From an uncultured Alphaproteobacteria bacterium (GTDB taxonomy: Bacteria; Pseudomonadota; Alphaproteobacteria; RF32; CAG-239), in contig CALXWH010000023.1 of NCBI GenBank assembly GCA_944392315.1, positions 5,991 to 69,990 on the forward strand: a stretch of 64,000 bases of DNA, written 5' to 3'. A program made the position numbers and the translations under genes. Every line of letters begins with the position of its first letter. Positions within the stretch are counted from its first letter, which is position 1. The notes beneath the pieces are model-generated. The model saw only the letters and a list, made by a program, of their open reading frames with translations, was not told the origin of the DNA and did no database searches. Shown piece by piece: positions 26,777 to 49,270 of this stretch.

Positions 26777-26914
26777 TTTTGGTACTCTTTTTCATCCATT
26801 TATACCCTAATTTGCGGGCGGGGTTTAGTCAATTAAACAAAAATTCTATACACAATTTGTTTAACTTGTTGTTTTGGCTTTGTTTATTTTTTTATCATTT
26901 TGAATCTGAAAGTA

Positions 26915-26943
26915 TTGACATCTCTGTCGGAGGGTGATATAAG
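26915..26943 (+). promoter_or_regulatory. Sigma70-type promoter P1 at the left border of the phage-like cluster
   Basis: TTGACA (26915-26920), 17-nt spacer TCTCTGTCGGAGGGTGA, TATAAG (26938-26943). The TATTGACATC...CTGTCGG(A/G)GG context is shared with P2 at 32236. Confidence 0.55.
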
Positions 26944-27035
26944 TTTTTGTATCGTGGAAGAGTGCATATCTAAAAAGTTGAATCTTGGGATAAATTATTT
27001 TTAAAGTTTAAATTTTAATTGAATGTCATTAAAAG

Positions 27036-27066
27036 CGCTGTCGGTTTTTTATCGGCGGCGTTTTTT
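27036..27066 (+). terminator. Intrinsic terminator ~95-120 nt downstream of P1 and ~270 nt upstream of TerS
   Basis: 8-bp stem CGCUGUCG/CGGCGGCG (two G-U pairs), a 9-nt loop, then TTTTTT (27061-27066). Confidence 0.55.
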
Positions 27067-27272
27067 CGTGGCCGAAACATAAAGGCTCGGTCGTGAACTT
27101 ATCGGCAGGGCTTTTGCGTTGTTCTGGAATTTGGGCTTTGATTTGGTTTAGGCCAAGAATTCATTACCTTATCTACTTTTATAAGAAAACGACAATTCTC
27201 CTAAAAAACGGATAGGCACTCTTTCTATCGTCAATTATGGGATTTTTGCTTTAGGTGAAAATGTATGGGCGG

Positions 27273-27298
27273 GGCGCTTATGAGCGGACATAAGCGCC
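27273..27298. repeat. Perfect 10-bp inverted repeat with a 6-nt spacer, just upstream of TerS
   Basis: GGCGCTTATG agcgga CATAAGCGCC. No T-run follows, so it is more likely an operator, an RNA structure or a packaging-related site than a terminator. Confidence 0.8.
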
Positions 27299-27332
27299 GT
27301 GTGTCTCTTATGACGCAACGGGTGTTCCGTAT

Positions 27333-27752
27333 ATGTGGGTATGGGTTATTATGGGTGTTCGGAAAAAAAGTATTAATAAAACGGATGAAGAAATTTTGAC
27401 GGCGGTGTTTGAGGCGTTGCGCAAGGGCGCTTCTCTTTTTGCCGCTTGTCAAAAAAACGGTATCGGGACGAAGCAATTTTATGAGGCAACGTTCGCTAAT
27501 CCCGCTTTTTCGCAAGGGTATAAGTTGGCGCTGGCTGATTATGCCGATAGCTGTACCGATAATATTCGTAAAATTGTGGCGGAACTTAAAAAAGGCGAAA
27601 TAGATAACTCTACGGCCAAACTTTTGATTGAAACCGAAAAGTGGTTGGCGCAAAAGGCTTGTCCGGAACCTGTCTGGGCGACGTTGCAAAATGGCGATGA
27701 TGATAATGACGATGGGCAGAATTTGAAAGAAATTGTGGTGAAGTTTGTGTGA
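27333..27752 (+). CDS. Terminase small subunit (HTH type)
   Basis: EEILTAVFEALRKGASLFAACQKNGIGTKQFYEATFANPAFSQGYKLALADYADS...KLLIETEKWLAQK matches the common podovirus/alphaproteobacterial-prophage TerS pattern. It sits directly upstream of TerL. The start may be the internal ATG at 27351. Confidence 0.7.
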   Translation: MWVWVIMGVRKKSINKTDEEILTAVFEALRKGASLFAACQKNGIGTKQFYEATFANPAFSQGYKLALADYADSCTDNIRKIVAELKKGEIDNSTAKLLIETEKWLAQKACPEPVWATLQNGDDDNDDGQNLKEIVVKFV

Positions 27753-27776
27753 GTATTTGATGATGGGCAGAGGATC

Positions 27777-29096
27777 ATGGCTAAGGTGATACAAAAAGAA
27801 ATGAAAGTGCAACTGCCGCGGGTGTTTCGGGAGCTCTTGACGGTTAAAGCACGCTATAAGATGTTTTATGGCGGAAGAGCCGGCGGGAAATCTTATGCGT
27901 TTGCCGATGCGCTCTTGACGCTCGCGACCAGTCGGAAACTCTTAATCGCCTGTGTGCGTGAGGTGCAAAATTCTATTAAAGATTCTGTTTATAAGTTGAT
28001 TGCCGACAGAATTGCTTTTTATCAGCTCAACGAATACCGCCTCTATGAAGATAAAATCGTCAACCTCAAAAACAAATCCAAATTTATCTTTAAGGGGATT
28101 TTGGAACACAATGCGCAAAATATCAAATCGCTTGAAGGGGTGGATATTTGTTGGTGTGAAGAGGCGCAGAAAATCTCGGAACGCGCTTGGCAAATCTTGG
28201 ACCCGACCATTCGTAAGCCCAATGCGGAAATTTGGCTCTCACTTAACCGTGAAGAAGAAAACGACCCCGTTTGGAAGGCGCTCGCTCTGCATCCTGATAA
28301 TGACACGATTATTCGCAAGGTTAACTATTATGACAATCCGTATTGTCCCGACAACATGAAGCGATTGGCGCTTAAGATGAAAAATGAAAATTACGGCGAA
28401 TATCTGCATGTTTGGGAGGGAGAACCACGCTTGACGGCGGATAATCACTTAATCGGGCGCGAAGAAGTGTATCGGGCGCTTGAAAACGATATTAAAATCA
28501 ATGACGATACGGCGCCGCTCATTATTGGGGTTGATGTGGCGCGTTTTGGCGATGATAAAACCGCTATTTGCTATCGGCGTGGAAGACAAGTCTTAAAATT
28601 CAAAACGTTTCAAAAGCTTGACGTGGTGCAGGTGGCGCATCTTATCGGTGCTATTATTGCCGAGGATAAGCCGGCGCGGGTGTGTATTGATGTGGGCGGA
28701 CTTGGTGCCGGTGTGTATGACGTGTTGGCCGCAAACGGTTTGGCTGAATATGTTGTCGCGGTTAATTTTGGCGAGCGAGCTGACAACGCCGAGCGCTATG
28801 TCAACCGACGGGCGGAAATGTGGGCAAGAGTGGCTCAATGGCTGACGTCGCCTTTGCCGGTTTCTTTGCCCGAATTTTCCGGCTTGGTGGAAGATTTGAC
28901 GGCGCCGCTTAAGATGTTTGATGCGCTTGGGCGGTTGCAGTTGGAACCAAAAGCCGAGATTAAAAAAAGATTGGGGCGTTCTACAGATGTTGCTGATGCG
29001 TTGGCGCTCACGTTTGCTATTCAAAATGCGGAATATCTGTTAAAAATTCCTCATCCCTCAGGTGGGGATTTTGTGGATGATTCCGTTTATCTTTAA
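27777..29096 (+). CDS. Terminase large subunit (PBSX/Terminase_3-like)
   Basis: Walker A FYGGRAGGKSYAFADAL, Walker B/coupling ICWCEEAQ and a C-terminal RNase-H-like nuclease region (IIGVDVARFGDDKTA...DVADAL). Confidence 0.9.
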   Translation: MAKVIQKEMKVQLPRVFRELLTVKARYKMFYGGRAGGKSYAFADALLTLATSRKLLIACVREVQNSIKDSVYKLIADRIAFYQLNEYRLYEDKIVNLKNKSKFIFKGILEHNAQNIKSLEGVDICWCEEAQKISERAWQILDPTIRKPNAEIWLSLNREEENDPVWKALALHPDNDTIIRKVNYYDNPYCPDNMKRLALKMKNENYGEYLHVWEGEPRLTADNHLIGREEVYRALENDIKINDDTAPLIIGVDVARFGDDKTAICYRRGRQVLKFKTFQKLDVVQVAHLIGAIIAEDKPARVCIDVGGLGAGVYDVLAANGLAEYVVAVNFGERADNAERYVNRRAEMWARVAQWLTSPLPVSLPEFSGLVEDLTAPLKMFDALGRLQLEPKAEIKKRLGRSTDVADALALTFAIQNAEYLLKIPHPSGGDFVDDSVYL

Positions 29097-29121
29097 CTTA
29101 ATTTTATAAAGGAGTACATAG

Positions 29122-29316
29122 ATGAGTTCTGTTTTTTCTAAACCGAAAGTTGTTCAGGTGCAACCGCAAGAGGTGGAGTTGGAAGTTGTGGATAATTCTG
29201 CTGAAGTGCATGAATTGGAAAATAAGCGCAAAAAGAAAATGGGCGCCGTATCACAACTTTTATCTCACGATAATTCTTATGGTTCCGGCGGCGGTAAAAC
29301 AACGCTCGGTGCCTAA
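29122..29316 (+). CDS. Small hypothetical phage protein (64 aa)
   Basis: Strong SD (AAGGAG) 8 nt upstream of the ATG. Charged, with a Gly-rich C-terminus. No family recognised. Confidence 0.55.
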   Translation: MSSVFSKPKVVQVQPQEVELEVVDNSAEVHELENKRKKKMGAVSQLLSHDNSYGSGGGKTTLGA

Positions 29317-29401
29317 ATAAGCGCGATAAAAAACGTTGCATTTAAGTTTTATTTTGGTATAAAGTTTGTGTATTCTGGTTTTGTTTTATGGGAATAAATC
29401 T

Positions 29402-29722
29402 ATGGACGCAAATTTGAATAACTTATCTAAAGCCAAAAGGATGACGGCGGTTGACTATATGGTTTCAATCGTGCCGGCACTGTTGTTTGGGCTGTTTATT
29501 GATGACGGTGCGGATTTTTGGATGATTGGTGCTGTTGGGGTTTATGTGCTGTTTATCGCGATTGGCGGATGCGGGGGTTCGTTGACGACTGTTTATGCCA
29601 AATTAACCCAAAGCATGAAACTGCAAAAGCCTGTGGCGGAATATGCTCGTTTTGTCGGCGTGGGGGTGCTTTATTACCTCTTGTGGTGCGGGTTTATGGT
29701 TATGTTTAGTTTGTTGGTGTGA
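29402..29722 (+). CDS. Small membrane protein (3 TM segments)
   Basis: MDANLNNLSKAKRMTAVDYMVSIVPALLFGLFI... has three hydrophobic helices. Holin-like size and topology, but no endolysin partner is visible. Confidence 0.55.
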   Translation: MDANLNNLSKAKRMTAVDYMVSIVPALLFGLFIDDGADFWMIGAVGVYVLFIAIGGCGGSLTTVYAKLTQSMKLQKPVAEYARFVGVGVLYYLLWCGFMVMFSLLV

Positions 29723-29733
29723 CGAGGCGGAAG

Positions 29734-30036
29734 ATGATGAAGTTCAAAATGTATTGGAAAGCAATCTTATGTTTTCTCATAGGGGCGGCGGTGTTGCCGA
29801 TGTGGACGGAGTGGGCGCTTGCCTCAAATCTCGGTCTTAACATATCCTCGCAAAAAGCGTTGTTGATTGGGTTGTTTACTATCGCTTTTATTGTGGCGTT
29901 TTCTTTGCATAAACCGCTCTATGTGCGTTTGGTTAATGAGGATAAACGACATTTTATTAAATCTGCGCTGATGTTTATTTGGCTTTATATGGCCTGGTGC
30001 GGCGTGATGCTTATCGGTAAAGTGTTGGTGGGCTAG
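29734..30036 (+). CDS. Small membrane protein (3 TM segments)
   Basis: ATG 29734 has GAGG 6 nt upstream. MMKFKMYWKAILCFLIGAAVLPMW... has three hydrophobic helices. Confidence 0.55.
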   Translation: MMKFKMYWKAILCFLIGAAVLPMWTEWALASNLGLNISSQKALLIGLFTIAFIVAFSLHKPLYVRLVNEDKRHFIKSALMFIWLYMAWCGVMLIGKVLVG

Positions 30037-30060
30037 TTTTTAATTTTTCTTTTTAATGAG

Positions 30061-30088
30061 CCGGTTTGCTTCTCAAGCCGGTTTTTTT
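30061..30088 (+). terminator. Intrinsic terminator between the membrane-protein genes and the portal gene
   Basis: Stem CCGGUUU/AAGCCGG (one G-U pair), a 7-nt loop, then TTTTTTT. Confidence 0.55.
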
Positions 30089-30142
30089 GTGGCTGAAACG
30101 TGGAACTTCCTTTTCCGCGTTTCTTTATTTTGGGAGGTTCGT

Positions 30143-31846
30143 ATGGAACATTTGGATAATCGTTCTTCGGAATTTCAGCCGGAGAATATTTTTGCTAAAG
30201 ATGGGCAATCTTTTGCACCGCGGTTGGTGCGCAAAAAACCGGCATTTAACGCGGAAAATATTTTGAAGCGCTTGGAGGCGATGAAAACCGAAAGAGCTAA
30301 GTGGGAGCCGATGTGGGATAAGGCGGCGGAAATGTGTTCGGTTGAATCGGAACTCTTTACGACCGATAACCGCGGGAGAGTGAGGCAAAATGTGTTTGAT
30401 ACCACGGGGCGAAACGCTTTGGCTTGCTTTTGCTCCAGCATGAAATCGGTGATTGTGCCGACAACATCGCAATGGCACAGGCTTAAACCGGTGGATCCGC
30501 ATTTGGACGACAATGCCAAGGTTAAAAAGTTTTTGGATAAGGCGACGGATTTGCTCTTTCGGGTGCGTTATTCGGCGTATTCCAATTTTGCGTCCGAAAG
30601 CGATTTGTTGTTTAATCAACTGGGAATTTATGGGCATGCGTTGTGGATGGTGGAGGATAATGTCGGGCAGGGGATTGTTTATCGCACTATTCCGGTTAAA
30701 GAGGCTTATATCAAACGTGATGACAGCGGAAAAATTGCCGCGGTTTTTCGTGAGTATGAATTAACGGCAGGCGAAGCGGTCAAAAAATTCGGCGATGCTT
30801 TGCGGGGGGATATTTTGCAAGCGGCGGAAAACACGCCCGAGCGGATGTTTAAGTTTTTGCATGCTGTTTTTGAGCGCGATGACTATGCGCTTGATGCGGT
30901 TGACTTTAACGGGATGAAATATGCGAGTGTGCACATAGACATGGCGGCTAAACGCATTATTCATGTCGGCGGGTATCGCACTTGTCCGTATATGGCGCCG
31001 AGGTTTTTGGGGATTGCCGGAAGTTCTTACGGCGACAGTCCGGCGCTGCAGGCGTTTTATGATTTATTAACCGCCAATGAAATGGGCAAGACTATTCTGC
31101 GTACCGGTCAGCTTCAGGCTAATCCGCCCATCCTTACTAATATGGGGTTGATTGATACCAATAAGCTCGGTTCGGCGGGGGCGGTTATTCGGGGTGGTTT
31201 GGATAATCAGGGCAAGCCTGCGGCGGTTTCTATGCAATATGGCAACAATCTCTCAATTACGGTTGAAATGCAGCGCGAGGTGCGGGCGGCGATTGAAAGA
31301 GCGTTTCTGGTGCCTTTGTTCCAATCACTCACCCAAACAAAGCAGATGACCGCTACCGAAGTGGAAAAACGCGAGATGGAAAAATCTATGTTGTTGGCGC
31401 CGATGTGTGAACGTATTTCCGCAGAATGGCTTGCCGGCAATATTGAGCGCGAGTTGGATATTTTGGCTTCTTACGGCGTGTTAGACGACGTTCCGGATGA
31501 ATTGATGTATGAAGGTTCCATTGCTATTCAATTTGAGGGACCGGCCGTGCATATGCAGCAATCGGGTGCGATTGTCGGGCTTTATAAAACGATTGAGGCG
31601 GCGACGTCTTTGGCACAGGCTAACCCGAATATCTTAAATGTGTTTGATACCGAAGCGGCGCTCCGCAAAATTGCCGATTATTACGGTGTTGGTCCGGATG
31701 TGGTGCGTACCGCTGATGAAGTTGAGGAACTCTTAATGCAACAGCAGGCTCAACAACAAGCACTTCTGCAACAGCAACAAAGCGGTGCGCAAGCAGGAGC
31801 ACCAAATGCTTCTCTTGCGACTTTGCTCAACAAAACTTCGGCATAA
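30143..31846 (+). CDS. Portal (head-to-tail connector) protein, podovirus type
   Basis: ATG 30143 has GGGAGG upstream. It is 567 aa, sits after the terminase and has an acidic/Q-rich C-terminus, consistent with T7/BPP-1-class connector proteins. The family call rests on size, position and general sequence character. Confidence 0.75.
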   Translation: MEHLDNRSSEFQPENIFAKDGQSFAPRLVRKKPAFNAENILKRLEAMKTERAKWEPMWDKAAEMCSVESELFTTDNRGRVRQNVFDTTGRNALACFCSSMKSVIVPTTSQWHRLKPVDPHLDDNAKVKKFLDKATDLLFRVRYSAYSNFASESDLLFNQLGIYGHALWMVEDNVGQGIVYRTIPVKEAYIKRDDSGKIAAVFREYELTAGEAVKKFGDALRGDILQAAENTPERMFKFLHAVFERDDYALDAVDFNGMKYASVHIDMAAKRIIHVGGYRTCPYMAPRFLGIAGSSYGDSPALQAFYDLLTANEMGKTILRTGQLQANPPILTNMGLIDTNKLGSAGAVIRGGLDNQGKPAAVSMQYGNNLSITVEMQREVRAAIERAFLVPLFQSLTQTKQMTATEVEKREMEKSMLLAPMCERISAEWLAGNIERELDILASYGVLDDVPDELMYEGSIAIQFEGPAVHMQQSGAIVGLYKTIEAATSLAQANPNILNVFDTEAALRKIADYYGVGPDVVRTADEVEELLMQQQAQQQALLQQQQSGAQAGAPNASLATLLNKTSA

Positions 31847-31858
31847 AGGAGAAAAGTG

Positions 31859-32197
31859 ATGTTTTTTAAGAAAATTAAGCGTGAACATGAACTGGTGAAA
31901 GCGTTTCATAAACTCTTTTTAACGCCTAACGGTAAACTCAAGCCCGAAGCGGAAATCGTGATTGAATTTTTGCGTGACGAAGCGGGGGCGCGCGGTGAGC
32001 TCGGCGCCGGCGGGGTGCCTTATTTTTATGATGCGCAAAATCGGTTTGATCCGAACGCGGCGGCTTTCCTTTTAGGCAAAAGGCGAATGTTTGATTTGCT
32101 GGTCAAATATCTGGCGCTTTCTGAAACGGAAGTGTTTGCTTTGTTCACCAAATTGCAACGCGACGGTGATGACGTGAAACGCGACTTGGATGTTTAA
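31859..32197 (+). CDS. Bbp19-like phage protein
   Basis: EIVIEFLRDEAG...FDPNAAAFLLGKRRMFDLLVKYLALSETEV fits the pattern (vl.dL......f.pdp...a...GrR.v.l.I...l) of the small conserved protein that follows the portal gene in BPP-1-like podoviruses and many alphaproteobacterial prophages. Confidence 0.55.
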   Translation: MFFKKIKREHELVKAFHKLFLTPNGKLKPEAEIVIEFLRDEAGARGELGAGGVPYFYDAQNRFDPNAAAFLLGKRRMFDLLVKYLALSETEVFALFTKLQRDGDDVKRDLDV

Positions 32198-32235
32198 GGT
32201 AAAAAAAAATATTTTCAAAAACGTTTCCAAACCTA

Positions 32236-32264
32236 TTGACATCCTGTCGGGGGTCGGTTATGAT
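32236..32264 (+). promoter_or_regulatory. Sigma70-type promoter P2 inside the virion cluster, upstream of scaffold and capsid genes
   Basis: TTGACA (32236-32241), 17-nt spacer TCCTGTCGGGGGTCGGT, TATGAT (32259-32264). A second -10-like hexamer CATAAT lies at 32270-32275 in the initial transcribed region. Confidence 0.6.
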
Positions 32265-32293
32265 GACTGCATAATGGAAATAGTGTTTGTTTG

Positions 32294-32319
32294 GGGACGT
32301 GGTTGACGTCCTTTTTTTT
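32294..32319 (+). terminator. Intrinsic terminator ~30-50 nt downstream of P2
   Basis: Stem GGACGT/ACGTCC (32295-32300 with 32306-32311), a 5-nt loop, then 8 T. Confidence 0.7.
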
Positions 32320-32356
32320 GTGGGCGTTTTTGCGCTCCGTATCTGACGATTTTTTT

Positions 32357-32388
32357 AGGCAGTGCTCGTTTTTGAGGCTGCCTTTTTT
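32357..32388 (+). terminator. Second intrinsic terminator in the P2 leader
   Basis: Stem AGGCAG/CTGCCT with an inner CTC/GAG extension, then TTTTTT (32383-32388). It ends 27 nt before the scaffold start codon. Confidence 0.6.
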
Positions 32389-32414
32389 GATGCTAACTTT
32401 TTTGTGGGGATTTT

Positions 32415-33140
32415 ATGATGATGAATTCTAAAAAGCCGGAGGGGCAGACTACCTCCGATAACTTCTTAAAGTCTGAATTTGATAAAGACTTTTTGCGTGC
32501 ACAATCCGGTTGGGGAGAAATGTCCGCGGAGGATTTGGACTATATTGACAAGAAGGGTTTTAAAACTCCTGCCGATTTGCTCAAATCTTATCGCGAACTG
32601 GAAAGAGCTTTCTCTTCTAAAGTTTCTTTACCGAAGGACGGCGATAAAAAAGCTTTGGACAAACTTTATTCCCGTTTGGGAATGCCGCAAGACTGCGCTT
32701 GTTTTGACGTTGTTTTTGCCGACGAAGATAAAGAAGACGGCGAGGCGTTTAAACAGGTTTGTCTTGAAAATCATATTTTGCCGCAATCAGCTCAGGCTAT
32801 CTATGATTGGTATGTGAAACATCGTGATGAACTGAACGAAAAAAACGAAACCTCTTGGGCGGAAAATTCTTTGCGCGAAATGGAAGAAATGAAACGCGTT
32901 TGGGGGGCTCGTGCGCAACGTAATTGGGAATTGATGAAACGCGGTGTCAGAATGTTTTGCGATGATGAAAAAATGATTGATGAAATTGAAAAGGCAATCG
33001 GTACCAAACGTATGATGGAGGTCTTTTGTCGTTTGGGTGAGGCGATTTCGGAAGATAATCCGATTAGCTTCGGCAGACGTCCAAAAGGCGATGATTGGGA
33101 TGCGGTTGAATATTTCAGAGAAATGTTTAATGATTACTAA
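32415..33140 (+). CDS. Scaffolding protein (by position and composition)
   Basis: 241 aa, highly charged and helical, immediately upstream of the major capsid gene as in T7-like and BPP-1-like modules. Confidence 0.5.
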   Translation: MMMNSKKPEGQTTSDNFLKSEFDKDFLRAQSGWGEMSAEDLDYIDKKGFKTPADLLKSYRELERAFSSKVSLPKDGDKKALDKLYSRLGMPQDCACFDVVFADEDKEDGEAFKQVCLENHILPQSAQAIYDWYVKHRDELNEKNETSWAENSLREMEEMKRVWGARAQRNWELMKRGVRMFCDDEKMIDEIEKAIGTKRMMEVFCRLGEAISEDNPISFGRRPKGDDWDAVEYFREMFNDY

Positions 33141-33167
33141 TTTTTGTTTGTTGAAAGGATTTTTTAA

Positions 33168-34067
33168 ATGTCTGGTACATTAAAAGAAATTGCGGTTGCT
33201 TTGTCTAAAAAGCAAGAGCATTATGTTGATTTTTTAACTAATGATTCTCCGATTTTGGATAATATGCGTTTTGAGGCTTCTTCTCACGGACTTTGGAACG
33301 CTTATGAAGAAGTGGCAAAAATTTCCGGCGCGGGCTTTATTGATATTAACCAACCGCTGCCTGAAATGGAAGTTGATTCTAATTTGAAAAAAATTGACTT
33401 GTCTATCTTGGGCGGGGAAATCTTCGTGCCGGAAGATAAGGCTGCCGTTATCGGTGTTTCGGAATATTTTGCTAAGAAAGTTCCTATCCTTTTGAAGCAT
33501 GCCGGTGAAACTGCCGAAAAGAAAATTATTTATGATAACTTTATTCCGTATGCGGTTGAAAACGGTAAAGCTGTTTCTGCGGGAGCGGATGATAAATGCT
33601 ACTCTATGGTTGCGGTTCGTTTTATTCCGGGTGAAGTGACTGGACTTTATTCCGCTAAAAATATCAATCGTTTCGGCCTTTTGGATTCAACGCCGATTAA
33701 CGGTGGTCAACTCTATAAAAACGCTAACGGTTTACTTGGCTATGGCGTGCGCATTAAAGGCTATATCGGTATGCAGCTTGCAAACCCTGATGCGGTTTCG
33801 GCAATTGTTAATATTTCTGCCGATAATATTCCGACAGCAGAACAAATTGACAATATGTTGGTGGATGCAAAGGCAACTCCGGGATCTACTTATATCTTTT
33901 GCCATCCGAAAGTACTTTCTATGCTTAATAAGTACAAAGGCAATGTGTTGCAAACCATGACCGGCGATATGGATGTTAACCGTAGTTTTGCTGCTTGGAA
34001 CGGTATTCGCTTTATCACTTCTTACAACTTTGAAAACGGTTCTGAAAAGGCTGTTGAATTGGCGTAA
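33168..34067 (+). CDS. Major capsid protein (HK97-fold class)
   Basis: 299 aa in the position after the scaffold gene. The C-terminal AAWNGIRFITSYNFENGSEKAVEL is typical of podovirus capsid proteins. Confidence 0.7.
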   Translation: MSGTLKEIAVALSKKQEHYVDFLTNDSPILDNMRFEASSHGLWNAYEEVAKISGAGFIDINQPLPEMEVDSNLKKIDLSILGGEIFVPEDKAAVIGVSEYFAKKVPILLKHAGETAEKKIIYDNFIPYAVENGKAVSAGADDKCYSMVAVRFIPGEVTGLYSAKNINRFGLLDSTPINGGQLYKNANGLLGYGVRIKGYIGMQLANPDAVSAIVNISADNIPTAEQIDNMLVDAKATPGSTYIFCHPKVLSMLNKYKGNVLQTMTGDMDVNRSFAAWNGIRFITSYNFENGSEKAVELA

Positions 34068-34091
34068 CCTCTTTTTTGGGAGATTTTTTTG

Positions 34092-34466
34092 ATGTTAAAT
34101 AATATTTTGAAAGTTTATGACGAGGATTTGGCGAAAGGGGCGCTTAACCAGGCCTCTATTGCCGAGGGAAATGTGGTGGCTGCAGGTTCTACACAAGGGG
34201 CTTTGTGTGTTAATGCGTTTGCGGTTGGTGATGTTGCCGTTAACGGAACGATTACCATCACGGTTAAGCATGGGGATACTGAAACGGGCGCTTTTGCCGA
34301 ATTGCTCACCATGTCTATTGAAGCGACAAAATCTTTTGTTGACGGGGAATTGATGGCAACGGCTACTTTGCCTGCCGATGTTAAAGATTTTGTGACGGCG
34401 GCAATTGCTTCAAGCACTTCTAATTCAGGCAATATTCGCGTGACCTTAGGTTATTTGGCACGCTAA
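34092..34466 (+). CDS. Small beta-rich head protein (decoration/cement-like)
   Basis: 124 aa, G/A/V/T-rich, directly after the capsid gene, with GGGAGA as SD. BPP-1-type capsids carry a small cement protein encoded at this position. Confidence 0.45.
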   Translation: MLNNILKVYDEDLAKGALNQASIAEGNVVAAGSTQGALCVNAFAVGDVAVNGTITITVKHGDTETGAFAELLTMSIEATKSFVDGELMATATLPADVKDFVTAAIASSTSNSGNIRVTLGYLAR

Positions 34467-34578
34467 TTTTTGCAAGGCATCCGCATATTATTTTGTCTCA
34501 AATTATTAAGAAAAAGTCTATAGTCCGGAGGGCGGGCAGTTGCTCGTCCTCTTTATTTTATGCTTTCTTGGAGGTTAT

Positions 34579-35175
34579 ATGTCTAAAGTTGAAATTATTA
34601 ACCGCGCGCTGCTCAAACTGGGCGAACCGCCGGTTTCGTCGCTTAACGATGCTGCTTTCGGCAAATCGTATGAGCTGATTTATGAAGATGTGAAAAATCT
34701 GTTGTTGTCGTCTTATCCTTGGCGATTTGCCGTTGCAACCAAGCGTTTGGCCAGAAGAGAAGAAAAATATGGCGATAAGTTTATGTATCAACTGCCGAAC
34801 GATTGTTTGCTTTTGCTTCAGGTATTTGGTGCGGGGATTAAAGATTTGACCGAGCCAAGGCCTTATGCGCTGCAAGGGTATGAGTTGGCCGATAATTGTA
34901 TTATCACGTTGCTTGATAAGGGAATTGATGTTGAATATGTGCGGGTTATTGATGACGATGTGCCGTTTCCGCCGCTCTTTCGGGAAGCAGTGGCTGCAAA
35001 AGTTGCTGCCGAACTTGCGATGCGCATTAAACATTCGCTTAACTTAAAGCAGGCGCTTGATAATGAATTTTTAACTCTTATTCAGCAGGCCGAACTGAAT
35101 AATGAAATTGCCAAAGATGCAGAATTGGTGCCGGATAACAGTTGGGTTTTGGTTCGGCAAGTGTGGGGTTGTTAG
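34579..35175 (+). CDS. Head-tail adaptor / tail tubular protein A (T7 gp11 class)
   Basis: ATG 34579 has GGAGG upstream. MSKVEIINRALLKLGEPPVSSLNDAAFGKSYELIYEDVKNLLLSSYPWRFA matches the characteristic N-terminal pattern of the gp11-like family (IN.AL..LG...i.SL.d.s..a.....Y...rd.lL..hPW.FA). Its 198 aa compare with 196 aa in T7 gp11. Confidence 0.7.
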   Translation: MSKVEIINRALLKLGEPPVSSLNDAAFGKSYELIYEDVKNLLLSSYPWRFAVATKRLARREEKYGDKFMYQLPNDCLLLLQVFGAGIKDLTEPRPYALQGYELADNCIITLLDKGIDVEYVRVIDDDVPFPPLFREAVAAKVAAELAMRIKHSLNLKQALDNEFLTLIQQAELNNEIAKDAELVPDNSWVLVRQVWGC

Positions 35176-35238
35176 TTGTTGATGTTTTGAGATGCGTATC
35201 CGTTTTTCGGGCGCTGTTTATTTGGGAGATTTGCAAAA

Positions 35239-36306
35239 ATGAGTATTAAACCGACAAGAATGCAGTTTAATGGCGGCGAACTTAGTCCGTGGCTGCAAGG
35301 ACGAACGGATATTGCTAAATATGATAAAACGGCGAAACTTTGCCGGAATTTTATTCCTTTGGTGGAGGGGAGCTTAAAACGCCGTGGCGGAACGCATTTT
35401 GTGGCGCAAACGCCGGTTGAGGAGGATATTTTATTTCAAATTTTGCCTACACCATCGGAGGCGAAAGTTTTGATTAACGGAGTGGAGAGATCTTCTATTC
35501 GTGTTGCCAGAGGGGATAAACTTTATTATGAGGTCAGTTATGACGGATATTCGGAAAGTAGCGGAAATTATGTGGTTTTAGAAGATACTTCCCTTGAGGT
35601 GGCGCTCGTTTCCAAATCCGAATTATTGACGTTTACGGTGGAGGCTGAACCTCTTGATGCTACGATTGTGCTGAATGGTTATAAACGTCAATCTGTGAGA
35701 GTTTTGAAAAATTCTACGGTTGAATATCAGGTGTATAAAGACGGATATATTTTACAAAGCGGGTCGGTTTTGGTGACGGATAATAAAACTTTAAGTATTG
35801 TTCTTGAGCCTGATGAACTGGCGCAGATTGATTATGGTGATTGGGGAAATTTGGAAAAGTTTGTCGGGTGTGCGGTCTTTTTATCCAGTGATTATTTCTA
35901 TAAAAGTTGGGTGATTAAATTTTCTAACGGATATTTGGGTGTTGTTTTTAACTATGGCGATACGGCGCCTGATGCAAACTATGTTGTCAGCGACGAGATG
36001 TTTTTTAAAACAAACTATGACTTGTATAACGCCATAATTAAAGTTGGTGGCGTGTATTACACACCTTGTGTTGCCGTTAGAGGAGCGGTGGATGATATCA
36101 TCGTTATATGGTATTATGATGAGGATGGCTCGTGCATCGGCGGAATTGATTATTTTACGGCTAACTTGAGCTATTGGCCAAAAGATGAGGACGGAAAGTA
36201 TATTATGGAAGATAACGATTATGTCGGGGTCGTTTCCGGTAATGTTTTGAAGGTTTATTATAAGGGGCGTTTGGTTTGGGAGTTGAAAGGAAAAAGTCAT
36301 GTCTAA
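35239..36306 (+). CDS. Chimeric tail protein: nozzle-type N-terminal segment, two PEGA-like beta-sandwich domains and an aromatic-rich beta domain
   Basis: Residues 1-57 (MQFNGGELSPWLQGRTDIAKYDKTAKLCRNFIPLVEGSLKRRGGTHFV) look like the normal N-terminus of podovirus nozzle/tail-tubular-B proteins. Then come PSEAKVLINGVERS... and PLDATIVLNGYKRQS... (PEGA-like) and a Y/W/G/D-rich C-terminal domain. Confidence 0.6.
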   Translation: MSIKPTRMQFNGGELSPWLQGRTDIAKYDKTAKLCRNFIPLVEGSLKRRGGTHFVAQTPVEEDILFQILPTPSEAKVLINGVERSSIRVARGDKLYYEVSYDGYSESSGNYVVLEDTSLEVALVSKSELLTFTVEAEPLDATIVLNGYKRQSVRVLKNSTVEYQVYKDGYILQSGSVLVTDNKTLSIVLEPDELAQIDYGDWGNLEKFVGCAVFLSSDYFYKSWVIKFSNGYLGVVFNYGDTAPDANYVVSDEMFFKTNYDLYNAIIKVGGVYYTPCVAVRGAVDDIIVIWYYDEDGSCIGGIDYFTANLSYWPKDEDGKYIMEDNDYVGVVSGNVLKVYYKGRLVWELKGKSHV

Positions 36307-38437: not shown

Positions 38438-38491
38438 TGCTTGGTTTTGAGGTCTTAAAAGGGGCAGATATTGCCTCTTTTTTTATGGGGT

Positions 38492-38950
38492 ATGAAGATG
38501 ATTAGAGATTATCAATCAGGCGACGCAAAGAAAATTCTGTTACAAGCGCAGCAGGCGGTTGAGGCGCAAACTTTTGCGGACGGATTTGAGCGGGTTCAGG
38601 CTTATACGTTAATTAACGACGATGGGGAAGTGTTGGCCGTATGTGGGTTTGAGGTGTTTTTTGATAATAACGAAAAAACGGCGCAATGTTATGCGCTTAT
38701 CGGGCAGAATATCGGGGGGAAACTTTTAACGCTGGTTCGGTTCTTAAAAAAAGAAATTGCCCACGAAGCGGCTCGCTTAAAAATCAAACAGGTGGTAATG
38801 ACGGTGAGGGATGATTTTGGGCAAGCGAAGCGCTTGGCGTTGATGCTCGGATTTGTTCCGGTGCGCGTGATGGAAGATTTTTTTGATGGGAAAAATTATC
38901 AACTTTATGAAAGGAGTTTTTATTATGGTGGCTCAGGCACTCTTAATTAA
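38492..38950 (+). CDS. GNAT-fold acetyltransferase-like protein
   Basis: About 150 aa. ALIGQNIGGKLLTLVRFLKKEI resembles GNAT motif A (Q/R-x-x-G-x-G/A), followed by AKRLALMLGF. The start codon is uncertain (38471, 38492 or 38498). Confidence 0.4.
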   Translation: MKMIRDYQSGDAKKILLQAQQAVEAQTFADGFERVQAYTLINDDGEVLAVCGFEVFFDNNEKTAQCYALIGQNIGGKLLTLVRFLKKEIAHEAARLKIKQVVMTVRDDFGQAKRLALMLGFVPVRVMEDFFDGKNYQLYERSFYYGGSGTLN

Positions 38951-39386
38951 AGCCGGGGTTAATTTTGCTTCCGGTTTTTTAAAAGGAAAAGAAGAACAAA
39001 ATCAATATGAAAAAAAGGCGCAACTGGCGTTACAAAATGCACAAGTTTATAGGCAAAATGCAGCAAATATTCGCTTGAGCGGGGCTCAAAACGAAGATGC
39101 TTTGCGCTCGCAAAAAAGAGCAACCGTTGCTTCGGCTTCGGCGGCTGCCGGTGAAGCGGGGATGGGCGAAAGTCCGACCACGACAACCGCTCTGGCGACG
39201 ACTTCTGCGGCGCTTGAACAGAATATCTTAAACGAAAGATATCGTGTTGAAAGCGAGGCTGAAAATTATTTGTATCAGGCGATGGTTGAAGAAGCCAACG
39301 CCAAACAATATCGCAAAGAGGGGCAAAATCGCTTTAGCGGCAATTTGCTCAGCGGGCTTTCATCTTCGCTGTCTTCTTTGTTTTAA
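38925..39386 (+). CDS. Internal virion (ejection) protein, small
   Basis: ATG 38925 has AAAGGAG upstream. 153 aa, A/Q/S-rich and helical with a hydrophobic N-terminus, positioned after the nozzle gene like T7 gp13/gp14-class proteins. Confidence 0.45.
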   Translation: MVAQALLIKAGVNFASGFLKGKEEQNQYEKKAQLALQNAQVYRQNAANIRLSGAQNEDALRSQKRATVASASAAAGEAGMGESPTTTTALATTSAALEQNILNERYRVESEAENYLYQAMVEEANAKQYRKEGQNRFSGNLLSGLSSSLSSLF

Positions 39387-39402
39387 GTTTAGGAGAGATA
39401 AG

Positions 39403-41064
39403 ATGGCAAACAGACAAAAAGTTCCTTTTATGAGATTAGGCGGCGCTATGCTTAAAAGGCCGGTGGCGGCGCAAATTACGTCTCCGGCAAGACGATTTTT
39501 GGCCTCGGATTCTTCGCTTTATGTTGATTCGGCTCTGCTTGAGGCGGCAAACACATTGGCTGATAAAATGCAAAAGACGGAAGATGAACGTTTGGCTATG
39601 CAGGCGGATGTTTCGCTTAAGGCAACGCGAGAGGCTTTGCAAAACGCCGCAACGCCTGATGAGTTGCAGAACATGGTCAAAGATGGCGATAAGGCTTTGG
39701 CGGCGCAATTTGATGGTGATGAAAAGGCAAGAGCGTTTTGGAAAAAACACGGCGATAATATTTTGGCGGCGCATCGTGATGATACGAAAAAAATTGTAGC
39801 AGAGAAGCAAATTGATTTCGGTAAGCAAAGTCTTAATTCTATGTTGGCGGATAATCAAAATTTATTGGCCGATAACGGTGATGCAGCAAAAGTCAGCAGA
39901 CTTTTGGAGATGGGGACGGATGAAATTCAAAAGACGCCGTTTTTGACGGAACCGGATAAAAAAAATTATCGGCAAGGGTATCTTAAAACCGGTATTCTTA
40001 ATGCGGCGCTAAATAATCCCGAAGCGGCTTCTCGTGCGGTTGATATGTATGTTGACGATGAGGCGGAAAAGAAACAGCTTAAAGCTCAAATTCAAGAGAC
40101 TAAATCTTTAACCGCAACGGCACAACAGCAAGATCAAGCCAAAAGGGAAAGATTGGATTTGCTCAATCGTTTAAGCGCGGCGCAAAGTTTGTGGCAACAA
40201 AAGGAGCATGGCGATATTTCTCCGGCACAATATTTTGTTTTGCGGCAAAAAAATACGGTATCAAATGCAAGCGGCGAAAAATCTCTGCAAACGATTGATA
40301 TTTGGGGTGATGACGAAGAGAGAAGTTTAACTCCTTTGAGCGAGGTTTATCGCTTGGTGCGCAAGATGAACGAAGGAACGCAACTTTCTGCTCAAGAAAT
40401 CAGTGATGCGTCTAATTATCTTATCAATGCTTATCACCAAAACAAACTTGGCTTAGAAGAAGTTTCGGCTTTGCAAAATCAACTCTTGGCAGCGCAAAGC
40501 GATAAGCCGACGGCTGAAATGATGTTTGATAAAGAAGTTGATGCGCTGGTGGATAAAGCCTTTGCGGCCGATTTATCTGCAGCATCTACGAGGGGGAATT
40601 TTATGGCGCAACAACTGATGGAAGATAAGGCTAAATTTGCGTTGGATATTTATCAAAATTACTATGCCACAAAAACGGCTTTGGCTTCTTCTTTGCAACA
40701 AAACGGCGGGCAGTTGACGCCGCTTCAGGAAAAGAAAATCAGTAGGCTTGCTTTGGACGGCGTTATCAAAGATATGATGCTTAAAACCAATGCTCAAAAA
40801 GATGCGGTAACGTTTGGCGAATTAAAAAGAGCGCTTCAATCGGCTTATGCGGGAACGGATGTCGCGCGTATTTGGAAAAAATATGCTTCTTTGGCACCGT
40901 TTGCCGAAGATAAAATTGAAACGATGCGTCAAATTGCTCGTGAGGAGCAGCGCAAAGAACTTAATTATCCGCAATTTGATTCTTACGAAGAATTGGCAGC
41001 GGCTGATTTGGCTCCCGGTGAAAAATTCTATTTTCAGGGACGATTGGCAGTGATGAAGGGTTAA
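39403..41064 (+). CDS. Internal virion (ejection) protein, medium
   Basis: ATG 39403 has AGGAGA upstream. 553 aa, strongly helical and A/Q/K/D/L-rich. The positional analog is T7 gp15. The track ORF start at 39244 overlaps the previous gene and looks spurious. Confidence 0.5.
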   Translation: MANRQKVPFMRLGGAMLKRPVAAQITSPARRFLASDSSLYVDSALLEAANTLADKMQKTEDERLAMQADVSLKATREALQNAATPDELQNMVKDGDKALAAQFDGDEKARAFWKKHGDNILAAHRDDTKKIVAEKQIDFGKQSLNSMLADNQNLLADNGDAAKVSRLLEMGTDEIQKTPFLTEPDKKNYRQGYLKTGILNAALNNPEAASRAVDMYVDDEAEKKQLKAQIQETKSLTATAQQQDQAKRERLDLLNRLSAAQSLWQQKEHGDISPAQYFVLRQKNTVSNASGEKSLQTIDIWGDDEERSLTPLSEVYRLVRKMNEGTQLSAQEISDASNYLINAYHQNKLGLEEVSALQNQLLAAQSDKPTAEMMFDKEVDALVDKAFAADLSAASTRGNFMAQQLMEDKAKFALDIYQNYYATKTALASSLQQNGGQLTPLQEKKISRLALDGVIKDMMLKTNAQKDAVTFGELKRALQSAYAGTDVARIWKKYASLAPFAEDKIETMRQIAREEQRKELNYPQFDSYEELAAADLAPGEKFYFQGRLAVMKG

Positions 41065-41092
41065 TGGTTTTTGTTTTAAGGTAGGATTTGAT

Positions 41093-46174: not shown

Positions 46175-46196
46175 GAGGGTATGTGTAAGTAAATAC

Positions 46197-46225
46197 TTGC
46201 ATTTATATATCGGCAGTTCTATAAT
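46197..46225 (+). promoter_or_regulatory. Near-consensus sigma70 promoter for the 507-aa gene
   Basis: TTGCAT (46197-46202), 17-nt spacer, TATAAT (46220-46225). Confidence 0.6.
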
Positions 46226-46258
46226 GCCTTAGTTTTTTTCTTTTGACGGAGTTTTTTT

Positions 46259-47782
46259 ATGGATAATCAAGATGTCTCCAGAGTAAAAGCAAAGGGCAGA
46301 GTGGAACTGCTGTTTTTGTTTTTGATGTTGGTTTTAGTGGTTGGCGGGGTGGCCGAATATCGTCATGCTGTGTCGCCAATGTCTTCGGCTACGGTTATTT
46401 TTGACTATAATGAAACAGAGGGTGAGGTTGTGAAAGAGAAGGTGGTACCTTCTGCTACTATTAAAGCACCTCTTGAGGCCAAAGCGCCGGTTTCTGAACT
46501 TAATGCGCCGAAAGCACAAGATATTGCTATTCCTGAGGTGAAAAAGGAAAATGTTGCGGAGCCGTCTTTGGGGCAAAAGTTAGCGCAAAGTTTGGAGAAA
46601 TCACAACAAAATGTTGAAGCTAAGGAAAATAATTCTGCTTTAACCGAAAATGAAAAAGCTCCGGAAAATAAAGAGGCGGTTCTATCTAAAGAGGTTTCTT
46701 CACACGATGGGGCGGCGGAATTAACGCAATCTTTGCAAGAAATTCATCAAAAGGCGGAAAATATCTCACGGCCGCAATCGGCTTTGGGGCAAATTAAAGA
46801 GCGTCCTCTTGCAAAACCGGTTCAAGCTCAACCGCAGCCTGTGTTTGAAGCCGGAAAAATTGAAATTTATGATAGCGACAAAGGCGTTGTTGCCGTGCAA
46901 GAAAGTGTGGAGGTGATTGCAACACCCAAAGCTGAAACTCCGGAAACGCATACGTCTCAATCAGCGCAAAATGTTCAGACGGTTTCAAACTCTCCAGAAG
47001 TTGTAGCAATTGAGGCAGAGCCGCTGGTTGTAAAAACGGATGAAACGACTGTCAAAGAGGTTAAACCTTCGCAAGATAAGGCTGTGGAGCAGGTATCTCA
47101 GGCAGTAACAGTTGCGGCAGATGCAAAAGCCAAAGAAACTAAGCCAGAGAATACGTCTCAAGAGGCAAAAGTTGTTGAAGAGGGTAAAGAGGCTTCTTAT
47201 AATCAGCCAACGCTATTAGTACCGGTGGCTAGAGAAGGAGCTGAGCCTCTTAAAGCGTCAATAAAAGAAGAGGCGAATAAAGAAAATCTTTCTTCTAACG
47301 CGTCTTCGGATAAGGCGCCGGTTGATATGATAAAAGCACTGCAGGACAAAAAGGAACGGTTGCAGGATAATGTGCAAAAGACAGTGTCTGAAAAGGTTGA
47401 GCTTGTTCAAGAAAAGTCTCAAAATATTCAAAGTGCTCTTGATGAAAAAAAGGCTTTGGCGGTGCAGGCTTCAGATGAAGTTGCTTCTTCTGTTCAAGCT
47501 CGTGAAGAACAAGTTACGCGTAGTCAAAAAGCTAATGAGGCGTTAGAGAATTTGTTTAAGAAAATGTCTGAGCCGAATGCTTTGAACAGTTCTTCTGTTT
47601 CTGTTGAGCCGGATGCTTCTGACAAGGCTTCTTTGGGTGAAAAAGCAAGTGAATCGGTGAAAGATGAAAACTCATCCGTTCAACCTGTTGAAAATAATGT
47701 AAAAAACAGTTCTGCTCCATCTGGTGAAAATGCAGATGCCGGGGCGGTTGATTTGATGAAAGCGATTGTTTCGCGAAAATGA
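46259..47782 (+). CDS. Membrane-anchored, intrinsically disordered E/K/A/V/S/Q-rich protein
   Basis: It has a single N-terminal TM helix (VELLFLFLMLVLVVGGVA) followed by ~460 low-complexity acidic residues. It has its own promoter. Confidence 0.6.
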   Translation: MDNQDVSRVKAKGRVELLFLFLMLVLVVGGVAEYRHAVSPMSSATVIFDYNETEGEVVKEKVVPSATIKAPLEAKAPVSELNAPKAQDIAIPEVKKENVAEPSLGQKLAQSLEKSQQNVEAKENNSALTENEKAPENKEAVLSKEVSSHDGAAELTQSLQEIHQKAENISRPQSALGQIKERPLAKPVQAQPQPVFEAGKIEIYDSDKGVVAVQESVEVIATPKAETPETHTSQSAQNVQTVSNSPEVVAIEAEPLVVKTDETTVKEVKPSQDKAVEQVSQAVTVAADAKAKETKPENTSQEAKVVEEGKEASYNQPTLLVPVAREGAEPLKASIKEEANKENLSSNASSDKAPVDMIKALQDKKERLQDNVQKTVSEKVELVQEKSQNIQSALDEKKALAVQASDEVASSVQAREEQVTRSQKANEALENLFKKMSEPNALNSSSVSVEPDASDKASLGEKASESVKDENSSVQPVENNVKNSSAPSGENADAGAVDLMKAIVSRK

Positions 47783-47929: not shown

Positions 47930-48004
47930 GGTCCCATCGTCTAGTGGTTAGGACATCGCCCTTTCACGGCGGTAACATGGGTTCAAATCCCGTTGGGATC
48001 ACCA
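47930..48004 (+). tRNA. tRNA-Glu (TTC)
   Basis: GGTCCCATCGTCTAGTGGTTAGGACATCGCCCTTTCACGGCGGTAACATGGGTTCAAATCCCGTTGGGATCACCA is a 75-nt cloverleaf with anticodon loop CTTTCAC and CCA encoded. Confidence 0.92.
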
Positions 48005-48045
48005 ATTCAAATAGCACTCTTTAAAAGGAGTGCTTTTTTGTATCT
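47989..48045 (+). repeat. att-like direct repeat copy 1 (last 16 nt of tRNA-Glu plus its terminator hairpin)
   Basis: cccgttgggatcaccaattcaaatagcactctttaaaaggagtgcttttttgtatct. Compare copy 2 at 48212. Confidence 0.85.
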
Positions 48046-48211: not shown

Positions 48212-48269
48212 CCCATTGGGATCACCAATTCAAATAGCGCTCTCTAGAAGGAGTGCTTTTTTTGTATCT
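48212..48269 (+). repeat. att-like direct repeat copy 2
   Basis: cccattgggatcaccaattcaaatagcgctctctagaaggagtgctttttttgtatct differs from copy 1 by 4 substitutions and a one-T run-length change (counted by eye). Confidence 0.85.
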
Positions 48270-48900: not shown

Positions 48901-48907
48901 AGAGGAA

Positions 48908-49270
48908 ATGCATAAAATGACAAAAATAACATTGCAAAAGGTAATATTCCTGAGTTTTAAGTTCATTATTCTATCTTTATTATTGATGGCGTTTTTAGAA
49001 GATTATTTTATTGTTCAAAACTCAATAGGGGGGATTGTTTTATTTGCATATGCCTTTGTAATGCTTGTTTGTTTTATTTCTTTAGGTTGCGCTTTCTTTT
49101 TTAGATTTCGTTATAAACGTATTCTATACATCATCTCGGTAGTGTCTTTTATAGGGTATTGTGCCATGAATAATCTGGTGTCAGGTATTTATGAAGCAAG
49201 AACGGTGGCTTTTTGTTTGCAAAATGGTCAAGTATATGATTACAATGAGCATAGATGCCGTACTGACTAA
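48908..49270 (+). CDS. Small membrane protein (3 TM segments) with a Cys-containing tail
   Basis: ATG 48908 has GAGGAA upstream and lies 8 nt after the stop of the SAA-like gene. MHKMTKITLQKVIFLSFKFIILSLLLMAF... Confidence 0.6.
   Translation: MHKMTKITLQKVIFLSFKFIILSLLLMAFLEDYFIVQNSIGGIVLFAYAFVMLVCFISLGCAFFFRFRYKRILYIISVVSFIGYCAMNNLVSGIYEARTVAFCLQNGQVYDYNEHRCRTD

Follow-up and report, generated by a model that had tools for sequence, protein, structure and literature searches.

To our knowledge, the gene transfer agents (GTAs) of Alphaproteobacteria all derive from one siphovirus-like ancestor; the Desulfovibrio agent Dd1 is reportedly short-tailed. Experiments have demonstrated antitermination control of the Caulobacter GTA cluster, in which the binding element used by GafZ is placed between the -35 and -10 boxes (PMC11150451), and FpGTA of Faecalibacterium, a GTA-like element called podovirus-like by its authors, is a 10.5-kb ten-gene operon with packaging data (PMC12946183, 2026). 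The locus considered here is a phage-type block at 27333-47782 of a 64-kb stretch of contig CALXWH010000023.1 from an uncultured alphaproteobacterium; this full stretch is the window, and all coordinates refer to it unless a relative is named. Matches in PHROGs and Pfam show that the block encodes the complete packaging, head, tail, and ejection set of a BPP-1/BcepC6B-type podophage, with every gene on the + strand and none interrupted; the remainder of the window is housekeeping DNA. The nearest cultured relatives are the BcepC6B/BPP-1-like podophages (Rauchvirus and Ryyoungvirus, with relatives on Stenotrophomonas, Ralstonia, Liberibacter, and Pelagibacter), whose portals are 29-35% identical. 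A search of the literature found no paper describing this element. By computation, the block is a non-autonomous particle locus of phage origin that selection has maintained and that has become fixed in a bacterial clade. Probably it belongs to the host and encodes a GTA-like particle, having arisen from the morphogenesis half of a temperate BPP-1/BcepC6B-type podophage, although the last step, from particle locus to gene transfer agent, is one that we infer from sequence.

Conservation and selection across species

Why should the block be regarded as host property rather than as a decaying prophage? The argument is that purifying selection keeps the cluster intact in related species. Portal homologues number in the hundreds, and a scan of one genome per species retrieved 35 loci (labeled L with a number, as are further cluster loci examined in relatives), all in metagenome-assembled genomes that are labeled uncultured Alphaproteobacteria and come from the human gut, the rumen, or the gut of other animals. 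Portal identity is 69-98% in 29 of these loci and 51-61% in the other six. The 29-species group is chromosomal, on contigs of up to 0.6 Mb, and tblastn synteny maps reveal the same structural genes, intact: among genes not cut by contig ends, 27/27 portals, 18/18 capsid genes, and 25/26 genes for the large terminase subunit (TerL); apparently broken genes in relatives are alignment run-ins 5' of the true starts. Gene order is not immutable. The fibre and nozzle genes have shifted to the cluster front in L017, L018, L022, L023, and L024, and the portal gene lies behind the decoration gene in L012 and L015; a host-type 4-alpha-glucanotransferase gene (GH77, MalQ) and a 512-aa kinase-like gene stand between the portal and Bbp19-like genes in L017, L018, L022, and L023, and ankyrin-repeat genes are inserted within the cluster in L013 and L020. 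Clusters with host-gene insertions or rearranged order are still intact.

Selection was estimated as dN/dS (Nei-Gojobori) against orthologues in other species. Every structural gene has a dN/dS of 0.02-0.2, with dS of 0.35-1.7 relative to the nearest other species and saturated beyond; evolution is not neutral (dN/dS ~1), and the first impression that intact open reading frames (ORFs) speak against decay is borne out by these values and by genes that are intact across ~29 species. Few of these genes are under constraint as tight as that on the small and large terminase subunits, TerS and TerL, which argues that DNA packaging has been retained; since there is no phage genome to replicate, host DNA would be the available substrate.

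Is the cluster fixed, or does it come and go as prophages do? Presence and absence were looked up with the host LolA protein, not the cluster, as the anchor. The 22 contigs retrieved, from different samples, represent 10 distinct places in the species of the window; 10/10 carry the cluster at the same site, and the presence/absence polymorphism typical of prophages was not seen. Likewise, 34 metagenome contigs of a sister species have the same arrangement. The cluster is maintained in the host lineage under purifying selection and lacks prophage-like polymorphism, with signs of recombination (see below) as the caveat; selection, gene intactness, and LolA-anchored occupancy alike are not those of a decaying prophage.

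In a portal tree, all chromosomal clusters linked to the glucosyltransferase gene gtr (see below) form one clade beside phage-like relatives. The latter group comprises the six more distant loci, contigs of 39-43 kb from IMG/VR, and portal-carrying contigs of 43-47 kb; with portals 50-61% identical, these relatives look like ordinary temperate phages, several are on contigs of 42-45 kb, and one of them, L033, has a cI-type repressor gene 5' of the terminase genes. Megablast of the block against GenBank phages gave no match, so that a near-identical complete phage, which would point to a fresh truncation, was not found; the nearest phage-like portals are those at 50-61%, and no phage-genome-sized contig has structural proteins above ~61% identity. 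The missing modules do not turn up in the flanks that could be read: integrase, replication, and lysis genes are contiguous with the cluster neither here nor in two other species read on both flanks (L056-57 and L053-55), and in L058-59 the left flank only is readable. A Pfam scan of 88 non-structural ORFs of relatives gave housekeeping families (RecA, RpoB/C, DnaG, MetRS, FabI), one small resolvase, and ankyrin repeats, and the 25 families listed of 77 include no phage integrase. A tblastn search of all loci with BcepC6B non-structural proteins gave no matches, at the low sensitivity imposed by the distance of BcepC6B.

Gene content and chromosomal setting

The features of the block and its immediate surroundings are as follows.

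24956-26776, - strand: GtrII-like polytopic glucosyltransferase (gtr), 606 aa, ~10 transmembrane (TM) segments, divergent from the cluster; PF14264 in homologues
26788-27066, + strand: conserved non-coding control region
27333-27752, + strand: small terminase subunit TerS; PF20901 (Sf6_terminase), phrog_1482
27786-29096, + strand: large terminase subunit TerL, 436 aa; PF04466 (Terminase_3), phrog_3717/phrog_2; dN/dS 0.02-0.03
29122-29316, + strand: conserved 64-aa protein; family f11, 19 members including phage-like relatives
29402-30036, + strand: two small 3-TM membrane proteins (106 aa, 29402-29722; 99 aa, 29737-30036), from hydropathy
30058-30187, + strand: three consecutive terminator-like hairpins, 5' of and overlapping the portal start
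30143-31846, + strand: portal, 567 aa (gene call in relatives); PF12236, E 1.7e-93; phrog_332, E 5e-111
31859-32197, + strand: Bbp19-like small protein; PF25181, weak; kept in all relatives
32236-32320, + strand: second promoter copy with -10-like start motif and terminator hairpin, 5' of the scaffold-capsid operon
32421-33140, + strand: scaffolding protein candidate; phrog_3742, E 2.8e-45; resembles BcepC6B gp07, at the equivalent position
33168-34067, + strand: major capsid protein, 299 aa; phrog_212, E 9e-5; dN/dS 0.02; position per BcepC6B order
34092-34466, + strand: decoration-position protein, 124 aa; synteny with BcepC6B gp09/Bbp16
34527-34552, + strand: strong terminator 3' of the decoration-position gene
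34579-35175, + strand: head-tail adaptor, gp11-like; phrog_394, E 7e-40
35239-36306, + strand: fibre candidate, 355 aa; nozzle-type N-terminal 67 aa, then two Head_fiber_dimeric domains
36299-38437, + strand: tail nozzle, gp12-like; phrog_376, E 2.8e-150; PF25675
38498-41064, + strand: three internal virion/ejection proteins, ~150, 153, and 553 aa; phrog_4177/308, phrog_418; gene calls in L001 and L050
41093-46174, + strand: polyvalent internal protein, 1693 aa; PF18838 (LPD23), PF18798 (LPD3)
46259-47782, + strand: low-complexity 507-aa protein, N-terminally membrane-anchored; variable last cluster gene
47930-48004, + strand: tRNA-Glu(UUC), conserved right-hand neighbor of the cluster
48370-49270, + strand: accessory pair, SAA-like protein (176 aa; PF00277) and 3-TM Cys-rich protein (117 aa)

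The podovirus head, neck, and ejection set that an earlier note had read from the sequence without database searches is real: PHROGs and Pfam reproduced its families, and all family matches are of the podovirus T7/BPP-1 type, not of the RcGTA type. The same searches over all ORFs confirmed that integrase, repressor, and replication genes have no representative in the window; a functional BPP-1/BcepC6B-like prophage would also need cI, polymerase/primase/helicase genes, and a lysis cassette, none of which is in the window. What remains is a phage-derived structural cluster devoid of replication, integration, and lysogeny genes, with housekeeping flanks in other species, as expected of a viriform. 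The note had also recognized no classical fibre, a statement that now needs qualifying: the 355-aa product at 35239-36306 is a fibre candidate and matches the crAss001 head-fibre dimer 7qof. Its gene overlaps the nozzle gene by 8 nt, and the first ~67 residues of other phrog_376 nozzles sit here on the fibre-like gene, the nozzle itself starting at the equivalent of residue 62. The pair was considered as a broken nozzle gene and rejected, as the two-gene layout is kept in all relatives, phages included.

The capsid call is the weakest of the family assignments: a profile comparison with BcepC6B gp08, the major head protein, gave an E-value of 0.004 across 225 columns. AlphaFold2 run on the capsid protein without an alignment produced an unusable model (pLDDT 31), and PDB sequence searches with the capsid and 1693-aa proteins gave nothing. 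For the portal, an exact look-up of a 596-aa ORF returned no record; the true start lies further downstream. The two 3-TM proteins between the 64-aa gene and the portal match no family in PHROGs or Pfam and are holin-like candidates by hydropathy. Their genes have a dS of ~0.1 relative to L005, L006, and L007, with 0.4-0.6 in neighboring genes, and a dN/dS of 0.15-0.8; probably the segment was exchanged recently or is constrained in its nucleotide sequence. In L001, a 99%-identical strain, the 64-aa gene is separated from the first 3-TM gene by an extra 118-aa gene (8818-9174 of that locus), which is missing from the corresponding interval of the window, 29317-29402. PHROGs gave no match for g375, g760, the gtr gene, the SAA-like gene, g148, the 64-aa protein, the counterparts of the 507-aa protein (g507), or families f21, f22, and f61. 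Shorter counterparts of the 507-aa protein occupy the equivalent position in L016, L026, and L053. The 1693-aa protein has 272 homologues, many on contigs of 0.2-1.8 Mb; in the abundant sister species, a 42-bp tandem repeat (L053, 14261-14396, 3.2 copies) lies in the gene for the large internal protein and explains the length variants of 1784, 1798, 1812, and 1826 aa among many near-identical homologues.

How firmly is the block embedded in the chromosome? To its left lie genes for glycosyltransferases, RgpF, LpxA, GltX, UvrA, a release factor (RF), an amidase, and LolA; to its right, genes for a metallo-beta-lactamase-fold protein, Hsp20, YbaK, ribosomal proteins S6 and L9, and RpoD. The locus at the left window edge, once proposed as a possible home of the missing phage modules, is one of polysaccharide synthesis. 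Codon usage and GC content of the block resemble those of the flanks (relative synonymous codon usage, RSCU, r 0.82). Several lineages have LolA and g375 on the left side, and the tRNA-Glu gene comes immediately after the final gene of the cluster in the window and in L050, L053, L016, and L026 (three other divergent species). The left-hand order UvrA-amidase-RF-g375-LolA-gtr and the right-hand tRNA-Glu are common to species in which synonymous sites are saturated; in the sister species, the left flank reads UvrA-IS-amidase-RF-g375-LolA-gtr and the right flank tRNA-Glu, then CrcB, PEMT, NUDIX, and other housekeeping genes.

The block had been placed between ordinary chromosomal genes. This does not fit the gene on the left, which is GtrII-like and cluster-linked: it adjoins the first cluster gene, whichever that is, in ~20 of the 22 loci in which this side is visible, and it is missing from phage-like relatives. 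Homologues of its 606-aa product are named glucosyltransferase domain-containing protein. Because it is co-inherited with the cluster, gtr is probably part of the element. Serotype-converting phages carry gtr genes and, by analogy, the product may modify the surface glycan that the particle recognizes.

No direct repeat flanks the block, in agreement with the earlier failure to find an att duplication. A 51-nt direct repeat (92% identical, 47989-48039 and 48212-48262) consists of the 3' end of tRNA-Glu and its terminator; the ~220-bp unit between the copies holds a tRNA-like T-arm fragment on the minus strand, and its copy number varies among strains, L050 having one more than the window and L052. 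The repeat resembles a scar left by integrative elements and is located 3' of the tRNA, not within the block. Both tRNA-Gly and tRNA-Glu were considered as att sites for the block and rejected for lack of a matching flanking repeat, since the only tRNA-derived repeat is the one 3' of tRNA-Glu. Beyond it lies the accessory pair at 48370-49270, with a low GC3 of 0.24-0.29 and an intrinsic terminator hairpin immediately 5' of the SAA-like start codon; homologous pairs are found inside the cluster in L010, L011, L008, and L077. On the other side, ~10 kb left of the cluster, an Amidase_2 gene (T7-lysozyme/AmpD family, 252 aa, 16582-17340, - strand) is a conserved neighbor, also present in the sister species at 61% identity; its product may serve the host as an AmpD-like enzyme, or it may supply the lysis function missing from the cluster. 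Two ORFs of unknown function nearby, 15444-16526 (360 aa) and 18690-20132 (480 aa), encode paralogous repeat proteins, and L058 has a run of larger genes (16754-21929) with many copies of the same repeat.

The promoter-leader-terminator module

Strongly conserved non-coding DNA lies just upstream of the terminase genes. The gap between gtr and TerS is 556 bp, and ~280 bp of it are ~95% identical between species whose adjoining coding regions differ by a dS of 0.5-2. An upstream block of this control region (AGTCAA...ATATGCACAATTTGTTTAA) is invariant. It is followed by a near-consensus promoter, with TTGACA at 26915-26920, a 17-nt spacer, and TATAAG at 26938-26943 with an upstream TG; the left boundary that the earlier note had set at 26915 is exactly the -35 box. 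A -10-like motif, TATCGTGG, is located at the predicted start (~26951), and an A/T-rich leader conserved in primary sequence leads to an intrinsic terminator hairpin at ~27036-27060 and a T-run. RNAalifold gave no consensus structure for the leader, the terminator alone being structural, and Rfam searches, at gathering and permissive thresholds, gave tRNAs only, with no match in the leader.

The module is shared by many of the chromosomal clusters and missing from phage-like relatives. Searches with nhmmer found the control region beside gtr in L003/L019, L005-L009, L012, L015, L021, L025-L028, L036, L037, and L058, and in 65 loci in all when further metagenome contigs of those species are included. 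The terminator hairpin is present in 16/16 primary promoter copies, with a stem sequence that varies by species; in 12 of these it lies at +80 to +123, ending at ~+100 to +123, and in L012, L013, L015, and L022 it is nearer the start, ending at +45 to +88. The second promoter copy, at 32236-32320, recurs in L001, L005-7, L028, and L050-52, with analogous copies in L010, L011, and L020, and the module also precedes accessory genes in relatives; the promoter-start-terminator anatomy is kept in 16 primary and 6 secondary copies. The promoter motif reads TATTGACW-N17-TATRR...ATNNTGGA, with a terminator after it; a metagenome-wide scan for the motif, with a narrow pattern, revealed no further regulon members: its matches were the primary promoter of one abundant species, ~22 chance matches, and contig L111. 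In L111 (1-14853), the gtr N-terminus, promoter, and leader are identical to those of the sister species, and the contig switches abruptly, inside the terminator hairpin, to unrelated high-GC DNA; it is probably a chimeric assembly, the alternative being a cluster-less variant.

What could such an arrangement be for? The late operon of phage lambda is under processive antitermination by Q, with PR', qut, 6S RNA, and tR' as its elements. The layout here is of the same type, a promoter-proximal -10-like pause element and a terminated leader 5' of late genes: as in lambda, the promoter looks strong and constitutive, a -10-like motif occupies +1 to +6 with GG next to it, and the leader is short and ends in an intrinsic terminator 5' of the terminase genes. 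Unlike in lambda, no Q gene lies upstream, and the likeness of the motifs was judged by eye. The layout suggests antitermination control by a factor encoded elsewhere.

A probable GTA-like particle among its rivals and known systems

How would such a locus work? The proposed scenario begins with capture of the morphogenesis module by the ancestor of one clade of uncultured Alphaproteobacteria from gut and rumen; the module became fixed in the chromosome, and its function was kept by selection; integrase, repressor, and replication genes have been lost from the sequence, and gtr and tRNA-Glu are still linked. Transcription would begin at a strong sigma-70 promoter, which has a -10-like motif where the transcript starts, and enter a leader that ends in an intrinsic terminator, a module reused before the capsid operon. 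Because terminators follow the promoter modules and lie within the cluster, its genes are probably off by default; a processive antiterminator encoded elsewhere, comparable to lambda Q or Caulobacter GafZ, would turn them on. A subpopulation of cells would then assemble DNA-filled, short-tailed particles that take up host DNA and deliver it by injection to related cells along with the polyvalent internal protein, which would make the element a GTA-like viriform. The domesticated, GTA-like reading proposed in the earlier note is thereby supported, and no in silico refutation test contradicted it.

Several observations weigh against this scenario. Across the head/packaging module (27800-34100), the window is 90-93% identical to L005/L006 in nucleotide sequence, as compared with 62-85% for the host flanks and the tail/ejection module (34100-41000), a mosaic which suggests recombination between lineages. 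The phage-like contig L041 has a portal 82% identical and other genes 33-54% identical, which argues that exchange with phages is ongoing. Modules are thus still traded among lineages as well as with phages; inheritance has not been vertical throughout, and the monophyly seen in the portal tree does not by itself prove a single capture. The context beyond gtr differs in some species, so the gtr-cluster-tRNA unit may have moved, or the genomes may have been rearranged. No endolysin was identified within the window, as the earlier note had found, although the two holin-like 3-TM candidates can now be added; no regulator or cognate antiterminator was identified within the window or adjoining the clusters. 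The cluster is known from genes alone, and all genomes are metagenome-assembled. Finally, strict non-transmissibility is not guaranteed: the capsid protein is about as long as those of phage relatives (299 versus 305-307 aa), which makes a full-size head possible, and such a capsid could, unlike that of RcGTA, hold the whole 20-kb cluster.

Could the particle deliver something other than genes? A podovirus-derived injection device, bacteriocin-like, might carry cell-wall-targeting effectors or the polyvalent protein into competitors, with DNA packaging kept merely since tail attachment and ejection need a filled head. The 1693-aa protein with its polyvalent-protein domains would suit such a role, and accessory proteins in relatives' clusters share a ~60-aa N-terminal domain (LL.KYG...DEV) fused to GH108 lysozyme, Tlde1/YkuD plus PG_binding, SAA-like, or unknown C-termini. 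Small TM/Cys-rich proteins often come after these accessory proteins, a layout that resembles polymorphic effector-immunity loci; some accessory genes carry the cluster promoter, and the SAA-like and 3-TM genes just beyond tRNA-Glu in the window are members of the set. (Genes for the ~60-aa domain are located in L003 at 4871-5770 and 13906-15234, L008 at 12403-13011, L010 at 3920-4465, L015 at 6180-6848, and, two each, in L017 and L018.) Yet the shared domain is absent from the window's own cluster, no cytoplasm-acting toxin domain was seen, and the GH108 and Tlde1/YkuD enzymes can equally be read as lysis or virion wall-penetration proteins; with the very strong purifying selection on TerS and TerL fitting DNA delivery at least as well, an injection device is unlikely.

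That the block belongs to a still autonomous or helper-dependent mobile element, forming an infectious virus together with replication, lysogeny, and lysis modules at another genomic location or on a co-resident phage or satellite, appears quite improbable. The 64 kb of genome inspected leave room for it, since regulator and lysis genes must lie elsewhere anyway, and it would accommodate both the signs of recombination with phages and the listing of two chromosomal-type clusters in IMG/VR as viral contigs. A mobile element, however, should not sit at the same chromosomal position, with housekeeping genes on both sides, in divergent species, occupy 10/10 places with no polymorphism, and bear host genes inserted inside it, and no phage-genome-sized contig has structural proteins above the ~61% ceiling. 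A recently truncated or decaying prophage with no function, which the want of half a phage genome in the window and the att-like scar beside tRNA-Glu might bring to mind, is hardly credible when all genes are intact in ~29 species at a dN/dS of 0.02-0.2 with saturated dS, the regulatory DNA is conserved, and the scar lies 3' of the tRNA instead of flanking the block. A host-owned, GTA-like particle locus accordingly stays the preferred reading.

What would follow if this reading is true? The element would represent a second capture in Alphaproteobacteria, this time from a podovirus, implying that domestication of phage particles recurs and is not bound to one architecture; it would also point to a means by which genes move within a prevalent but as yet unculturable gut group. 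The promoter-leader-terminator module offers a handle for finding the antiterminator and for tracking induction. Prophage callers and IMG/VR list such clusters as viruses, so virome and prophage surveys of gut Alphaproteobacteria likely miscount. A fuller and more tentative proposal, which may or may not hold in all its parts, is that this clade independently domesticated a BPP-1-like podophage; the outcome would be a chromosomally encoded particle under antitermination control, by which host DNA, and possibly cell-wall-targeting effectors, pass from cell to cell. It would be a second, separate alphaproteobacterial GTA lineage, short-tailed, with a linked glycan modifier that perhaps sets donor immunity or recipient range.

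Where does the cluster stand among the systems described so far? With the left arm of BcepC6B it shares, in matching order, TerS, TerL, portal, Bbp19/20-like, scaffold, capsid, decoration, adaptor, nozzle, and internal proteins, and the order of structural genes is the same in the closer uncultured phage relatives (portal 50-61%). The right arm of BcepC6B encodes fibres, holins, endolysin, spanins, integrase, a replication module, cI, and primase; no part of this arm is in the window. In contrast to BPP-1/BcepC6B phages, the cluster occupies a fixed place in the chromosome from species to species, together with a conserved promoter-terminator module and gtr.

RcGTA-type elements (Rhodogtaviriformidae) resemble it in having an alphaproteobacterial host, a cluster composed of structural genes only, and clade-wide purifying selection; for both, the genes for regulation and lysis are expected at other genomic positions. 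Their ancestry is unrelated: RcGTA is of the HK97 siphovirus type, whereas the cluster is of the T7-fold podovirus type (portal PF12236, nozzle), and it spans ~20 kb as compared to ~15 kb for RcGTA. In the Caulobacter crescentus GTA, as here, intrinsic terminators stand downstream of the promoter and have to be read through, and the -35 and -10 boxes enclose a conserved element (PMC11150451); unlike in Caulobacter, no GafYZ homologue was identified, and the antitermination reading draws on sequence anatomy only. FpGTA is likewise a GTA-like element of a gut bacterium, its host being a Firmicute, and it has overtaken the earlier expectation that a podovirus-type GTA would be new (PMC12946183, 2026). 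Compared with FpGTA, the cluster is twice as long, alphaproteobacterial, and of BPP-1-like phage origin, and it is known from genes alone. It is best described as a podovirus-like, GTA-like element of independent origin from FpGTA, unrelated to the RcGTA type and equipped with a regulatory module of its own.

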